Source: a virus. From it: a stretch of DNA of 23,616 bases. Under the pieces are notes generated by a model that saw only the letters and a list, made by a program, of their open reading frames with translations, made no database searches and was not told the DNA's origin. The stretch lies in the UHGV virus genome UHGV-1378242; one strand, given 5' to 3'. Shown piece after piece: positions 3 to 22,661 of this stretch. The translations under genes and the position numbers were made by a program. Position 1 is the first letter of the stretch; each line of letters begins with the position of its first letter.

Positions 3-155
3 CTGATTATCACAAAGGGATATCCGAAGCGCGACGATTCCAGCCGCAGAATTGATATTCCGTATGACGGATATGAAATCAAGACAATCACACATCCCCA
101 CTTCGGCGATAAACCGGTAAAGGTGTTCGCGATAAAGGTGAATATTGATGGCTAA
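3..155 (+). CDS. 3' fragment of an upstream gene whose 5' end lies outside the window; hypothetical protein
   Basis: Frame 3 is open from the window edge to TAA at 153-155 (…GYEIKTITHPHFGDKPVKVFAIKVNIDG*). Its end overlaps the ATG at 148 of the next gene, suggesting translational coupling. Function not recognised. Confidence 0.3.
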   Translation: MIITKGYPKRDDSSRRIDIPYDGYEIKTITHPHFGDKPVKVFAIKVNIDG

Positions 156-486
156 ATCAGCAGCAGAGCGCAAAGCCGCTCAGAGAGCCAGACAAGCTGC
201 ATCTGGTGTGCGTAAGCTGGAAATTGTGCTTGATGCTCAGGAAATTGAAATGCTGGAGCGTAACTGTGCCACGCGTCGCCCCGGGCGTGCGCCTTACGAA
301 TTTGGTGAGTATATAGCGTTACTGATCCGCCAGGATGATGCACGCGTGCACGGGCGTATAAAATCGATCAGCAGAAAACGTTGCGGTAAGTGCGGCGAGA
401 GAGTTCCTGTGAATTCATGCCCGTGTGATGGTGACTCGCAATGCTGGGTGACTAAAGGCTGGCATGAAACGAAATTAATAGTGTGA
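148..486 (+). CDS. Hypothetical small basic protein with a C-terminal Cys cluster (CxxC-x8-CxC-x5-C), putative zinc ribbon
   Basis: ATG at 148 with GGTG 7 nt upstream; the track ORF 145..486 starts 3 nt earlier at TTG. 112 aa. Stop TGA 484-486 lies inside the palindrome GTGACATGTCAC. An intrinsic terminator follows at 536-561. Confidence 0.55.
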   Translation: MAKSAAERKAAQRARQAASGVRKLEIVLDAQEIEMLERNCATRRPGRAPYEFGEYIALLIRQDDARVHGRIKSISRKRCGKCGERVPVNSCPCDGDSQCWVTKGWHETKLIV

Positions 487-494
487 CATGTCAC
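483..494. repeat. Copy 1 of the perfect 12-bp palindrome GTGACATGTCAC
   Basis: Exact 12-mer also at 2748-2759 and 20073-20084. Each copy lies at the 3' end of a transcription unit, next to an intrinsic terminator hairpin. Confidence 0.6.
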
Positions 495-535
495 GAGTAG
501 ATTATGCATGATGAATTTGATGGGGTTTGAATACT

Positions 536-561
536 GCCGCCAACTATGGCGGCTTTATTTT
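536..561 (+). terminator. Rho-independent terminator
   Basis: GCCGCC (536-541), loop AACTAT, GGCGGC (548-553), then TTTATTTT. It sits inside the 5' extension of track ORF 527..1201, arguing that extension is not coding. Confidence 0.65.
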
Positions 562-2723: not shown

Positions 2724-2743
2724 AGCCAGCTCATCGGCTGGCT
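2724..2743. terminator. Intrinsic terminator hairpin, likely bidirectional and more convincing for the minus strand
   Basis: AGCCAGC (2724-2730), loop TCATCG, GCTGGCT (2737-2743). On the minus strand it is followed by TTGTTTTAT; on the plus strand by GTTTGTG. It lies between the convergent terL and the 123-aa minus ORF. A second hairpin ATCCTC-TGGT-GAGGAT is at 2701-2716. Confidence 0.5.
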
Positions 2744-2747
2744 GTTT

Positions 2748-2759
2748 GTGACATGTCAC
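2748..2759. repeat. Copy 2 of GTGACATGTCAC
   Basis: Exact 12-mer, 4 bp past the terminator hairpin and 5 bp from the end of the minus-strand ORF 2764..3135. Confidence 0.6.
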
Positions 2760-2763
2760 GGTG

Positions 2764-3135
2764 TTATTGCTCGCTTAACTTCTGCTTCAGCAAGTAACCT
2801 TCAAGCATCCAGATTTTGTTTACAGCATTCTGCCGGGCAATCTTCCGACCAATTTCCGCATCAAAGTTTTCCGGGCTTGCACAGGCGCTCTCTCCGGTGA
2901 CGGTGAAGCCGTTGCGCAGCACCAGGACGCAGAACGTCAGCAGAGAAAGTGATTCGTGCGGCTGGTAGTTTACCTCTCCGCCAGTATGTTTCGCTTTTAT
3001 GGCTACGCCAAAGGCACCATCTTCTGCTGTGAAATATGCCTCCTGAGCAATAATGCTCTCGATATGGTCTGGCGTAACGCGCGGCGCGGCTAAACCTTTA
3101 GCCTGAATTTCAGATTCAATGTCTTTGTCACTCAT
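2764..3135 (-). CDS. Hypothetical protein (123 aa), minus-strand moron between terL and portal
   Basis: ATG at 3135 with AAGGTGAG upstream. Opposite orientation to the flanking late genes and downstream of the tRNA on the same strand. Terminator hairpin just past its stop. Family not recognised. Confidence 0.6.
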   Translation of the reverse strand: MSDKDIESEIQAKGLAAPRVTPDHIESIIAQEAYFTAEDGAFGVAIKAKHTGGEVNYQPHESLSLLTFCVLVLRNGFTVTGESACASPENFDAEIGRKIARQNAVNKIWMLEGYLLKQKLSEQ

Positions 3136-3329: not shown

Positions 3330-3406
3330 TGGCGTGGCATGCAGGATTCGAACCTGCGACCAACCGCTTAGAAGGCGGTTGCTCTGTCCAACTGAGCTAA
3401 TGCCAC
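3330..3406 (-). tRNA. tRNA-Arg (anticodon UCU, reads AGA), phage-borne argU-like
   Basis: Minus-strand 77 nt: GTGGCAT-TA-GCTC-AGTTGG-AC-AGAGC-A-ACCGC-CTTCTAA-GCGGT-TGGTC-GCAGG-TTCGAAT-CCTGC-ATGCCAC-G-CCA. Perfect 7-bp acceptor stem, D-loop, T-loop GGTTCGAATCC, anticodon loop CU-UCU-AA and encoded CCA. It resembles E. coli argU as I recall it, with compensatory stem changes. Confidence 0.9.
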
Positions 3407-3728
3407 AACGCTGAGAGCACTTAGCCTGTTAAGGCGCCACACTTTGTCGCGGCTCCATAAATGCTCTCATCGTTGTACCCTCGTCTCTTCCGAGGCGTCA
3501 CACCGAATCGCCGGGATGGTGAATCCCCGTGCGCGGAATAAAACCGCTCGACTTGCACATTCCGGCTACCTGGTTCGTTTGCCCGAGCAAGGGAGGGTGC
3601 CCCTTAAACGTATCCAGACCGCTATCGGCGCATGTGCCATACGCCGTACTGCTCAAAATAAAAGCTCACTCCACCTGTTCAATTTAACGACAAGCCAGTC
3701 AGGTTAGTAACCGGAATGAACTCTTTGG

Positions 3729-3744
3729 TTACCTGAAAGGTAAT
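3729..3744. promoter_or_regulatory. Operator-like inverted repeat TTACC-TGAAA-GGTAA (16-mer TTACCTGAAAGGTAAT)
   Basis: The same 16-mer recurs at 22646-22661. It sits in the 430-bp non-coding region between the tRNA and the portal operon, next to palindrome GGTTAGTAACC (3702-3712) and direct repeat GGTAATAATTT (3739-3749, 3801-3811). Confidence 0.45.
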
Positions 3745-5734: not shown

Positions 5735-6027
5735 CAGATTACGAAGATGATCAACTGAAAGAAGAAAACGCCCGTAAGCAACGTGACATGGCACAGCGTG
5801 AAATTGATGACATTCGCTTTGTCATGAGCAGTGAACAGGGGCGTCGCGTTGTCTGGTCGGTGCTGGAGAAAGGCCGTGTGTTTTCCGCTATCTCACCGAT
5901 GGACGCTATGGCAATGGCATTTAATGAGGGGCAACGCAATCTGGCGCTGGAACTGTTTCAGCGCGTTATGGCGCATTGCCCTGAACAGTATTTGAAGATG
6001 GCCAAAGAGGCCAGTGAACAGGAGTGA
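5731..6027 (+). CDS. Hypothetical protein (98 aa) between portal and scaffold
   Basis: ATG overlaps the portal stop (ATGA). Charged, helical-looking sequence. Confidence 0.55.
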   Translation: MTDYEDDQLKEENARKQRDMAQREIDDIRFVMSSEQGRRVVWSVLEKGRVFSAISPMDAMAMAFNEGQRNLALELFQRVMAHCPEQYLKMAKEASEQE

Positions 6028-17109: not shown

Positions 17110-19584
17110 ATGAGACAGGAATGTATACAAGCGGTCCAGCAGGCGGCGCAGCGCACGTTAACGGCGCGAGAAATACAGAACATTGAAGACCGCATTTATC
17201 GCAATATGCGCTCCATTGCTCGTGATGACCCTATGTCGTGGCGACAACTTTCCGAGTCAGAGCGGCTGTATCGTGCAGCACAATTGGCATCTGAAGAATT
17301 ACAGCGAGAAGCGGCATTAAAGAAACGTCGTGTGGCTCTTACTATAGCCGCACGTCAGAGATTGGATAAATTTATCAATAGCTATCAAGGGGCTGATGGG
17401 AAACTTGGCGCTCTTAACCGTACTATTGCTTTTAATGCAGACGGTAAATCGAATTTCCTCTCTGTTGAGTCCAGAACAAAAGCCACTCGTGATTATGCAT
17501 TGAGTCAATTGCAGGAGGCATTCGAAGCAGTTGATCCTCGCTTTTTTGGCCTGTTTGAAGATGAAGCGGGCGTGCGTGACCTGGTATATGAAATGCGAGG
17601 GCAAAATACTGGCAATGCTAAAGCAAGAAAAGGTGCTAAGGCGTGGAGAGAAGTGACAGATCTACTCCGCCGCCGGTTTAATGATGCTGGTGGGGACATT
17701 GGCTATCTCGAAAACTGGGGGATCCCTCAACATCATTCTATGGAAAAGGTTGGGGCGGTATCAAAAGATAAATGGGTTAGCGATGTTATAGGTAAGCTGG
17801 ATCGCAAATATTATACCCGAGCCGATGGACAACTGATGAACGATGCCGAGTTGTCTGCATTTCTTGGAGAGGCTTATAACACGATCGCTACTGGTGGGCT
17901 GAATAAGCTTACTGATACCGGAATGCGAATTTCCGGCGCACGTGCTAACCGTGGTAATGCATCACGACAGATACATTTCAAAGATGCAGATTCCTATCTG
18001 CAATATCAGCAACTTTATGGCGATCGCTCTCTATGGGAAATCATGGTCGGTCACCTGGAAGGTATCAGTAAAGATATTGCACTGGTGGAAACATATGGCC
18101 CAAACCCCGATCATGTTTTCCGCTCCCTTCTTGATCAGGTTAAGGCAGAAACGGCAACAGCTAACCCGAGTAAAACCGGTAAAGTCGAGCGGCTGGCGAA
18201 CAACACAGAGAATCTGTACAACTTTATTTCTGGAAAGACACAGCCTGTAGCGAATCCGCACATCGCGCGATGGTCTGACAATATCCGCAACTGGCTGGTT
18301 GCCAGCAGACTCGGATCCGCGTTGCTGTCATCGTTCTCTGATCTTGGAACCATGTATCTGTCTGCGAAGGTTACCAACCTTCCAATGAACCAGTTATTCC
18401 GCAACCAGCTTGAAGCTATGGACCCAACGAACCGTACAGAACTTGCGCGGGCGCGCCGCGCTGGTCTGGCGATGGAATCTCTACTTGGCAGCGTTAACCG
18501 CTGGGCGATGGATAATATGGGGCCGTCAGTGTCTCGTTGGGCGGCAACGGCCGTAATGCGTGCCAGTGGGCTTACAGCATGGTCAGATGCGCACAAGCGC
18601 GCCTATGGCGTAACCATGATGGGAAGCCTGGGAGAAGTAGTGTCACGGACACCAGACCTTCGTAGCCTCGATGACTCTGATTTTCGTATCCTGAAAAGCA
18701 AAGGGATTACTGACACAGACTGGAGCGTATGGAAGCTGGCGCAACAGGAGGACTGGGGGAACGGTAATAATACGATGCTGACACCGGAAAGCATTATGCG
18801 TATCCCTGATTCAGCAGTTAAACATCTTGGTGAGCCTGAACGAGTGAAATTTGAGGCAATGCGTAAACTGCTCGGTGCCGTAACTGAAGAAGTTGATATG
18901 GCTGTTATTACACCGGGAGCACGTGAGCAACTGATAACCGGTTCTGGTATTCAGCGTGGAACATGGAAAGGTGAATTAACGAGAAGTGTTTTCCTGTTTA
19001 AATCGTTCCCTATCTCGGTTGTTATGCGTCACTGGTCACGCGCTATGGGTATGCCGTCTGCTGGTGGGCGTGCGGCATATATTGCGACGTTTATTGCCAG
19101 TACGACCATTCTTGGCGCTTTGTCGCAGCAACTTAACGACCTTGCGTCTGGTCGTAATCCTCGAGAGATGACAGGAGAAGGTGCCGCAAAATTCTGGCTT
19201 GGTGCTCTACTGAAAGGTGGTGGCCTTGGCCTTTACGGTGACTTTTTATTGTCAGATCACACTAGGTACGGAAGCGGCGCGCTGGCGTCGATGCTTGGCC
19301 CGGTAGCTGGTCTGGTTGATGACGTAGTGAAGATTGCTCAGGGCATACCGTTAAATGCTGTGGAAGGGAAGAGTGAGCAGACTGGTGGTGATCTGGTGAA
19401 GCTGGGGAAAGGTTTGATGCCAGGTGCGAATCTCTGGTACTTAAAGGCGGCTCTCGATCATATGATCTTGAACCAGATGCAGGAGTATTTTTCACCAGGC
19501 TATTTGCGTAAAATGGAGCAACGTTCGAAGAAAGAGTTTAATCAGACATACTGGTGGCGACCTCAGGATGTCACTCCGCAATAA
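17110..19584 (+). CDS. Putative internal virion/ejection protein (824 aa)
   Basis: Together with the 514-aa ORF it totals roughly the length of T7 gp16 (about 1300 aa). Last large gene of the operon. Confidence 0.6.
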   Translation: MRQECIQAVQQAAQRTLTAREIQNIEDRIYRNMRSIARDDPMSWRQLSESERLYRAAQLASEELQREAALKKRRVALTIAARQRLDKFINSYQGADGKLGALNRTIAFNADGKSNFLSVESRTKATRDYALSQLQEAFEAVDPRFFGLFEDEAGVRDLVYEMRGQNTGNAKARKGAKAWREVTDLLRRRFNDAGGDIGYLENWGIPQHHSMEKVGAVSKDKWVSDVIGKLDRKYYTRADGQLMNDAELSAFLGEAYNTIATGGLNKLTDTGMRISGARANRGNASRQIHFKDADSYLQYQQLYGDRSLWEIMVGHLEGISKDIALVETYGPNPDHVFRSLLDQVKAETATANPSKTGKVERLANNTENLYNFISGKTQPVANPHIARWSDNIRNWLVASRLGSALLSSFSDLGTMYLSAKVTNLPMNQLFRNQLEAMDPTNRTELARARRAGLAMESLLGSVNRWAMDNMGPSVSRWAATAVMRASGLTAWSDAHKRAYGVTMMGSLGEVVSRTPDLRSLDDSDFRILKSKGITDTDWSVWKLAQQEDWGNGNNTMLTPESIMRIPDSAVKHLGEPERVKFEAMRKLLGAVTEEVDMAVITPGAREQLITGSGIQRGTWKGELTRSVFLFKSFPISVVMRHWSRAMGMPSAGGRAAYIATFIASTTILGALSQQLNDLASGRNPREMTGEGAAKFWLGALLKGGGLGLYGDFLLSDHTRYGSGALASMLGPVAGLVDDVVKIAQGIPLNAVEGKSEQTGGDLVKLGKGLMPGANLWYLKAALDHMILNQMQEYFSPGYLRKMEQRSKKEFNQTYWWRPQDVTPQ

Positions 19585-19779: not shown

Positions 19780-20076
19780 ATGCAAGCGATAGGATTCATT
19801 GTTTATATCGTCGTTGGCCTTTTTCAGTTGGCAGCAATTATGGCTGGGCTTGAATCATGGTGGGGATTGCACTGGATAATTGCAGCCCCCATTGCTTTCA
19901 TCGTGAGCTATATTCCATTTGTTGGAGCGATTGTTGGTATGGTTGGTGCTGTGGATGTATGGCGGTGGGAGTGGTGGCAGGCTGGCCTTCTCTTCTTTGG
20001 TGGGATCATCTTTGCTATTGTCTGCGGTGGAATGTCATCATTTTTCGAACGGCTATCATTCAGAAAAGGAACGTGA
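19780..20076 (+). CDS. Small integral membrane protein (98 aa, about three TM segments, charged C-terminus), holin-like topology
   Basis: ATG with AGGTGA upstream. Very hydrophobic and Trp-rich. Last gene before the operon terminator. Stop TGA lies inside palindrome copy 3. Confidence 0.55.
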   Translation: MQAIGFIVYIVVGLFQLAAIMAGLESWWGLHWIIAAPIAFIVSYIPFVGAIVGMVGAVDVWRWEWWQAGLLFFGGIIFAIVCGGMSSFFERLSFRKGT

Positions 20077-20084
20077 CATGTCAC
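20073..20084. repeat. Copy 3 of GTGACATGTCAC
   Basis: Exact 12-mer, 2 bp upstream of the late-operon terminator hairpin. Confidence 0.6.
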
Positions 20085-20085
20085 A

Positions 20086-20110
20086 GGCCGCTTTCGCGGC
20101 CTTGTTTTTA
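20086..20110 (+). terminator. Rho-independent terminator closing the late structural operon
   Basis: GGCCGC (20086-20091), loop TTTC, GCGGCC (20096-20101), then TTGTTTTTA. Confidence 0.75.
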
Positions 20111-20269: not shown

Positions 20270-20340
20270 TGTGACATTTCCATCTATAAGCCACCTCAAT
20301 GTGGCGTCAATGAGTGTAGCACTGACTTTTGTTTCGTCCA

Positions 20341-21164: not shown

Positions 21165-21185
21165 ATGAACCTCAACCAATCGACT

Positions 21186-21200
21186 TTACCAATCGGGTAA
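21186..21200. promoter_or_regulatory. Operator-like inverted repeat TTACC-AATCG-GGTAA
   Basis: Same arms as the 16-mer at 3729 and 22646. Sits 20-35 bp upstream of the 108-aa gene start. A TATAAT-like hexamer is at 21214-21219. Confidence 0.4.
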
Positions 21201-21242
21201 TTTTAAACATGAGTATAATGCTTTTAACTGCAACGAGTGTAA

Positions 21243-22263: not shown

Positions 22264-22282
22264 ATTTACCGCAAAGGTAAAT
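22264..22282. promoter_or_regulatory. Inverted repeat ATTTACC-GCAAA-GGTAAAT nested in a longer hairpin
   Basis: Variant of the TTACC-N5-GGTAA motif, bracketed by the 8-bp inverted repeat AGGAGTGC…GCACTCCT (about 22244-22292). Confidence 0.4.
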
Positions 22283-22644: not shown

Positions 22645-22661
22645 ATTACCTGAAAGGTAAT
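22645..22661. promoter_or_regulatory. Operator-like inverted repeat ATTACC-TGAAA-GGTAAT
   Basis: Contains the 16-mer TTACCTGAAAGGTAAT identical to 3729-3744. About 40 bp upstream of the LexA box. A half-site-like CAGGTAAT follows at about 22706-22713. Confidence 0.45.

Follow-up and report, generated by a model that had tools for sequence, protein, structure and literature searches.

A matS-like dyad at the operon ends of phiV10/epsilon15-type phages, the probable site of a predicted ribbon-helix-helix protein

What is a perfect palindrome doing at three operon ends of one phage? The question is raised by a stretch of 23,616 nucleotides of the virus genome UHGV-1378242 (the window, meaning this whole stretch), in which the 12-mer GTGACATGTCAC occurs exactly at positions 483-494, 2748-2759 and 20073-20084, and nowhere else. 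The window is covered to 92% by the Escherichia phages HEMP4 and phiv142-3 at 97-98% identity and to 87% by phiV10, and the Salmonella phage epsilon15 matches it at about 76%; it is the late region of a phiV10/epsilon15-like podophage (Uetakevirus) that comprises, by annotation, the end of the early-right operon, the terminase genes, a long structural operon and part of the accessory region. An earlier note on this DNA had offered three roles for the palindrome: a binding site for a factor that modulates termination or antitermination, a recombination site at module boundaries, or a restriction-modification target. The answer at which we arrive is that the palindrome is very probably the cognate DNA site of a predicted ribbon-helix-helix (RHH) protein encoded at 148-486. 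The stop codon of this gene overlaps the first copy, a tie that the earlier note had overlooked, as it had the likeness of the site to matS.

That three exact copies are far beyond chance, as had been claimed, is confirmed by shuffling: allowing up to one mismatch, the window holds four matches to GTGACATGTCAC compared to 0.08 expected. The three copies are in fact copies of one 14-mer, TGTGACATGTCACG, which lies on the plus strand at copies 1 and 2 and on the minus strand at copy 3; the real unit is a 14-bp dyad, YGTGAC-NN-GTCACR. The earlier observations on context hold as well. Copies 1 and 3 take in the TGA stops of the open reading frames (ORFs) 145..486 (484-486) and 19780..20076 (20074-20076), an intrinsic terminator hairpin lies beside every copy (41 nt after copy 1, 4 nt from copy 2, abutting copy 3), and at all three the order is stop codon, palindrome, intrinsic terminator, reading toward the strong T-tract of each terminator. 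The whole 39-kb genome of phiV10 contains only three copies, which match those of the window (one is split by the ends of the record); epsilon15 keeps the 12-mer at three equivalent places despite diverged flanks, and Tyrion likewise has three. The two lesser matches in the earlier note are present but fare worse: the one-mismatch copy at 5783-5794 is a coding accident, its codons being those of R-D-M-A, and neither epsilon15 nor Tyrion conserves it; TGTGACA at 20271-20277, as a lone half-site, is not significant.

The evidence that ties the dyad to the gene at 148-486 comes from other phages. The annotation of epsilon15 notes the similarity of its homologue to gp46 of N15, and N15 gene 46 ends in GTGAC-TG-GTCAC, with three such dyads in N15. 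In ZF40, which also has three copies, GTGACATGTCAC lies 2 nt after gp22, the homologue, and in a Yersinia P2-like phage the homologous gp14 ends inside GTGAC-GC-GTCAC. Homologues that are only 33-41% identical, in unrelated phages, carry a dyad that overlaps or abuts the stop codon. Vibrio phage K303 has three dyads as well, two of them about 19 nt upstream of start codons, one being that of terS. A scan of prophages with one genome taken per species yielded 47 loci with homologues 39-85% identical to the window protein; at about 31 of these the dyad overlaps the TGA of the homologue or lies at most 12 nt past its stop, and almost every locus has one dyad or more within 10 kb, compared to 0.02 by chance.

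The specificity of the motif is equally pronounced. In 1.2 Mb of gene-carrying DNA, there are 83 GTGAC-N2-GTCAC dyads where about one is expected, an approximately 80-fold excess, and most of these sites are no more than about 4 nt away from a stop codon; other spacings and the everted arrangement occur 0-3 times each. One-mismatch dyads are at the chance level (25 against 34 expected), and recognition would therefore be all-or-none. The base outside the half-site is a pyrimidine in 161 of 166 half-sites, and the dyad centre is AT in 62 of 83 sites and variable otherwise; the central bases differ in families with divergent beta-strands (CA in N15, GC in the Yersinia phage), and close relatives tolerate several centres. 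The Aeromonas phage 13AhydR10PP, which encodes a divergent homologue, has an asymmetric variant, GTGACCGGACAC, four times (116, 809, 2563 and 28983; 0.006 expected). Three of these four copies share the same orientation and lie 2-3 nt upstream of a ribosome-binding site, and two of the three, those within the scanned first 3 kb, are found 15-17 nt past a promoter-like -10 box, one of them preceding the homologue's own gene. Lambda, P2 and P22 have no dyads, although just about 0.1 would be expected there, and one locus that we tried for coupled loss of gene and sites proved to be a recombinant with a different late region.

So what kind of protein could recognize such a site? The AlphaFold model built on an alignment of 73 sequences has a predicted local distance difference test score (pLDDT) of 92.5 and begins with a basic N-terminal helix, followed by an extended segment and a pair of helices; a four-cysteine region and one final helix complete it. 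It replaces a model from a shallower alignment, with pLDDT of 65 and meaningless Foldseek matches. As modelled, the protein has a ribbon-helix-helix (beta-alpha-alpha) DNA-binding fold, and the C-terminal four-cysteine region is presumed to bind zinc. Sequence models hint only weakly at an RHH and a zinc ribbon (the match to YbfE has E = 0.05): no curated RHH model passed among the 73 family members tested, with weak matches in a few (RHH_5, E = 0.013; RepB-RCR_reg, 0.028; RHH_1, 0.071), and Foldseek comparison of the better model with the PDB gave a single weak match, TTHA0139. The family is small, with 213 clusters at 50% identity among 1.84 billion representatives, and its PHROG is named 'transcriptional regulator'.

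A scenario that brings these observations together is that the palindrome would be the operator of the 148-486 protein, a dimer-type RHH binder that would place one subunit on each half-site and specify the two central bases loosely; dyad symmetry and the co-inheritance of gene and site suggest binding by a dimer via its paired beta-strands. The three operators would close three transcription units, namely the early operon to which the regulator gene belongs, the accessory gene that lies opposite terL, and the long late operon. At these junctions the bound protein would act on RNA polymerase as a roadblock or boundary, strengthening the terminators beside it and limiting the transcription that runs on into the following unit, also into the small gene or mini-ORF that begins 9 nt past dyad 1. 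A polymerase-blocking repressor fits the positions of the sites, that is, operon ends before terminators in this phage, gene junctions right next to a ribosome-binding site (N15 and site 1) and, in Aeromonas, places just past promoters. Comparative and structural computation shows the pairing and the fold, while the binding and the direction of the effect on transcription are what we infer; taken as a whole, an operator that doubles as an operon-end boundary reinforcing termination appears to be a reasonably likely, if far from assured, description of the element.

How general is the proximity to terminators? Under a strict rule, a hairpin followed by a T-tract (an earlier permissive predictor that accepted 42% of random positions was discarded), 25 of the 83 dyads (30%) have a terminator within 50 nt, compared to 6.8% of gene 3' ends and 1.8% of random positions. 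In the lambda-like head modules of Serratia and Symbiopectobacterium prophages, the stop codon is followed after 4 nt by the dyad and, after another 3 nt, by a terminator with a stem that resembles that of window site 2. The dyad-terminator association is real but not universal: the co-localization proposed in the earlier note is found at these family sites, whereas in other lineages the site stands before a ribosome-binding site or after a promoter. The role of a factor-binding site, likewise among the earlier proposals, stands insofar as the element is recognized specifically, and the factor may either strengthen or relieve termination.

Several considerations weigh against this scenario. 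Searches of Pfam, NCBIfam and PDB sequences with the 148-486 protein gave no significant match, and we found no relevant literature on the 12-mer, on epsilon15/phiV10 regulation, on phage regulators that combine an RHH with zinc, or on the protein family; the binding of the protein to the site is a prediction computed from sequence and structure. About one third of the homologues in the 47 loci lack a dyad at their own stop, and the p-value of the terminator enrichment is inflated by the common ancestry of many sites. The contexts of the sites vary, some lying within genes (ZF40, N15), one upstream of a promoter (N15) and others just past promoters (Aeromonas), so a single boundary mechanism may not hold. 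Furthermore, no way is established in which a terminator would be aided by a protein bound ahead of it, and anti-termination, repression of the following gene and an architectural role outside transcription are equally conceivable.

Comparison with known regulatory systems places the element between several of them. With the RHH repressors (P22 Arc and Mnt, MetJ, CopG, AmrZ and the antitoxins TacA/ParD), it shares a short dyad operator and, in Aeromonas, a site just past the promoter of the protein's own gene; the phage protein differs in the additional four-cysteine C-terminus and in passing no Pfam RHH model, and the operators in the window lie at operon ends by terminators, overlapping stops, rather than at promoters. 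The stoperators of mycobacteriophage L5 and other cluster A phages are short operators away from promoters, located in tiny intergenic gaps and often on stop codons, and are thought to stop elongating polymerase; they are asymmetric and oriented, number 20-30 per genome and are bound by a helix-turn-helix immunity repressor. The dyads resemble them in lying at gene ends, on or next to stop codons, but are symmetric, number about three per genome and have as predicted binder an RHH protein that is not the immunity repressor; the repressor of this phage group has operators with another motif, ATTACC-N5-GGTAAT. Finally, as with lambda Q and tR', the regulator gene is directly followed by a terminator, with the terminase and late genes beyond it, but the 148-486 protein has no Q homology or Pfam family, and N15 and ZF40 have a Q of their own alongside its homologue. 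The best promoter-like match in the stretch from dyad 1 to the terminator, 9/12, is not convincing. The features of the window are collected in Table 1.

Table 1. The dyads of the window and the genes and terminators around them
Feature	Position	Strand	Remarks
Predicted cognate binder gene	148..486	+	112 amino acids; PHROG 536; epsilon15 gp49 / phiV10 gp55 / N15 gp46 family
Dyad 1	482..495		TGTGACATGTCACG; overlaps TGA (484-486) of regulator gene; mini-ORF ATG 9 nt downstream; kept in epsilon15, Tyrion and the 47 prophage loci
Mini-ORF MHDEFDGV-stop	504..530	+	8 codons, between dyad 1 and terminator; 3' remnant of a 71-amino-acid gene (…YDEFDGL-stop)
Intrinsic terminator	536..553	+	Ends early-right operon, just upstream of repressor operators and terS
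Intrinsic terminator	2724..2743	-	Strong T-tract on minus strand, weaker on plus strand after terL
Dyad 2	2747..2760		TGTGACATGTCACG; between terL terminator hairpin and stop of minus-strand accessory gene; kept while at least 6 different genes abut
Accessory gene	2764..3135	-	PF13876 (N4 gp49 / Sf6 gp66 family); stop 4 nt from dyad 2
Last late-operon ORF	19780..20076	+	PHROG 3075; TGA 20074-20076 inside dyad 3
Dyad 3	20072..20085		CGTGACATGTCACA, the TGTGACATGTCACG 14-mer on the minus strand; overlaps TGA of last late-operon ORF, abuts terminator
Intrinsic terminator	20085..20102	+	Ends long late operon

A few further observations belong to these features and to their counterparts elsewhere. 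The repressor-operator motif, which is annotated in epsilon15, occurs six times in the window compared to 0.7 expected (572-588, 590-606, 3728-3744, 21185-21201, 22265-22281 and 22645-22661), with two overlapping copies directly upstream of terS and one upstream of the structural operon; no good sigma-70 promoter is visible upstream of terS. A tRNA-Arg gene (anticodon tct) lies at 3330-3406 on the minus strand, where a variable region separates the portal gene from the terminase genes. The dyad and terminator stem of window site 2 (2724-2760), AGCCAGCC…GCTGGCT, recur in the prophage loci L104 (15399-15440) and L102 (15591-16090). Two dyads of N15 are located at 28550-28561 and 33237-33248; one lies about 66 bp upstream of the predicted start of a promoter-like TTGACG-18-TAGAGT in the antirepressor (immA) operon, the other within the replication gene repA. 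In several siphophage-like and ZF40-like prophages, one dyad is embedded in frame (…C-D-M-S…) in a conserved early-left gene of about 105 codons (PHROG 2479) beside the exonuclease gene, as at L102 3890, L098 235, L104 2039, L101 4167 and ZF40 5125.

Among the rival explanations, the one that survives best is suggested by the likeness to matS. The dyads could be a phage version of the MatP/matS system, architectural sites bound by a mini-MatP or by the host MatP that bridge or position phage DNA, or control the access of MukBEF or the division machinery to it, with no role in transcription. The matS site is GTGAC-RNY-GTCAC (PMC3603311, PMC3116907), with the Escherichia coli consensus GTGACATTGTCAC (PMC8669397), and is read by MatP via a ribbon-helix-helix domain (PMC12756933). 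The phage half-sites are identical to those of matS and only the spacer is different, 2 bp instead of 3 bp, the phage site differing from GTGACATTGTCAC by one T. In both systems, the RHH module is preceded by a basic helix, and there are few stringent sites per replicon, some of them within genes, as is the matS in trpE. The hosts of the listed gene-carrying phages are all Enterobacterales, Vibrio or Aeromonas. These groups roughly make up the MatP clade.

The sequence comparison of the two proteins is of a marginal kind. The hidden Markov model of the phage family is collinear with MatP 69-139 at 6.5 bits, a score reached by 18 of 2000 shuffles, and hhalign of the family against MatP gives E = 0.17; the search for MatP homologues recovered near-identical sequences only, so MatP was compared without a family profile. 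The MatP models of Pfam (PF06303, PF17414) match none of the 73 family members, and a four-cysteine region takes the place of the four-helix bundle and coiled coil of MatP. A 3-bp spacer is found at just two sites in the 1.2 Mb, compared to 83 with 2 bp, and the strong preference of the phage sites for gene junctions, terminators, ribosome-binding sites and promoters points to gene regulation. Prophages are known to avoid true matS (PMC3603311). In the 108 kb of E. coli K-12 that we sampled, 100 kb of it in Ter, there is no 12-bp dyad, which is a weak test, and there is one matS, the one inside trpE. A perfect 13-bp site of the matS type, GTGACACCGTCAC, overlaps the TGA of an ORF at 19491-19503 of Vibrio phage K303, in addition to the three 12-bp dyads of this phage. 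Taken together, homology of the phage family with MatP is possible and the functional analogy is a lead rather than a result, and we consider it unlikely that an architectural system of this kind, with no bearing on transcription, explains the dyads.

Could the dyad instead be primarily a recombination site, at which cassettes of accessory genes are swapped between phages? The earlier note had allowed for a recombination site at module boundaries, and the site does lie exactly at mosaic junctions. Of 80 related contigs, 23 carry the 71-amino-acid gene, which begins 9 nt past dyad 1 and of which the window retains only the last codons. Dyad 2 has at least six different minus-strand genes as neighbours, all of them ending exactly 4 nt away from it, and around dyad 3 and its terminator, which form a constant island, three left flanks and three right ones occur in changing combinations. 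A comparison of the Enterobacter prophage L102 with L104 shows an inserted PF13876 gene, a member of the family to which the neighbour of window site 2 belongs, precisely between the dyad and its terminator. Lambdoid linkers and the PeSL cassettes of T4-type phages are known examples of conserved sequences at the boundaries of mosaic modules, and the dyad resembles them as a short conserved element, including a stem-loop, located exactly where accessory genes swap; it differs in having a linked, predicted binding protein and in being conserved far beyond the needs of a terminator. That protein contains no recombinase, nuclease or other catalytic domain as judged by Pfam and fold, the cassettes are not bounded by pairs of dyads, and there are other variable junctions without a dyad. 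The pattern is what would be expected from purifying selection on a short island that the RecE/RecT-type recombinases of the phages use as homology. The junction pattern is therefore real but probably a by-product, a selected island that doubles as homology for exchange, and a primary function in recombination seems quite unlikely. Mini-ORFs similar to that of site 1, MK[D/Y]EFD[R/G]F-stop, abut dyad 2 in epsilon15 and in the locus L043, and their third-codon positions vary, which suggests that the peptide or its translation is conserved; the acidic tail of the peptide resembles the C-terminal tip of SSB.

The dyad might also act once transcribed: folded into a small hairpin, in a 3' untranslated region or ahead of a ribosome-binding site, it would modulate terminator folding, mRNA stability or the translation of the next gene, with or without the protein. 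It is always transcribed at gene junctions, lies 0-4 nt from the terminator stems at sites 2 and 3 and 9-15 nt upstream of start codons at site 1, in N15 and in Aeromonas, and some natural single-base variants fall in the would-be loop or form G-U pairs. The predicted hairpin, however, is worth only -1.2 to -2.7 kcal/mol, no better than in shuffled sequences; the Aeromonas variant GTGACCGGACAC is unable to pair as a hairpin; and the asymmetric outer bases appear in the opposite sense in the mRNA of site 1 compared with those of sites 2 and 3. Because of these three facts, and because the fold of the linked protein is of a DNA-binding type, action of the element at the DNA level is favoured over action as RNA, which we hold to be very unlikely.

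The last alternative, a target of a host factor akin to CRP or SlmA, a restriction-modification target or a chance repeat, is scarcely credible: the site is palindromic and its outer GTGA/TCAC is common to CRP, SlmA and MatP sites (PMC3116907), but chance is excluded by the counts given above, the dyad is co-inherited with a phage gene across host genera, and no copy is present in the K-12 sample, weak as that test is. Of the individual candidates in this class, a CRP site is rejected on the spacing, TGTGA-N4-TCAC(G/A) rather than TGTGA-N6-TCACA, in agreement with the earlier note. The restriction-modification target that the same note had entertained is rejected as well: the motif is enriched some 80-fold rather than avoided, and with at least 10 and up to 12 specified bases it is too long compared with palindromes of 4-8 bp.

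If the dyad is the operator of the 148-486 protein, a precise DNA target and a function can be proposed for a protein family that is absent from Pfam and, as far as we found, from the literature, and that spans phiV10/epsilon15 phages, N15-type plasmid prophages, P2-like phages and vibriophages. The proposal would also account for three of the most conserved non-coding islands in phages of the phiV10/epsilon15 type. These phages serve in O157 typing and in the engineering of reporter phages, and the dyads flag safe and unsafe places for the insertion of cargo. The identity of the half-sites with those of matS, for its part, poses the question of whether the Ter-organizing system of the host and a family of phage regulators come from a common stock or the phage imitates its host. 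A more daring version, which we put forward as doubtful yet worth stating, is that enterobacteria, vibrios and aeromonads have temperate phages with a portable mini-MatP, an RHH protein with a four-cysteine C-terminus that shares ancestry with the host MatP, along with matS-like sites one base shorter, and that this pair organizes the DNA of the phage or insulates it, for instance by stopping polymerases or SMC/MukBEF where one unit borders on the next. Should this be true, the shorter spacer would let the phage escape the host MatP while keeping the same recognition logic.
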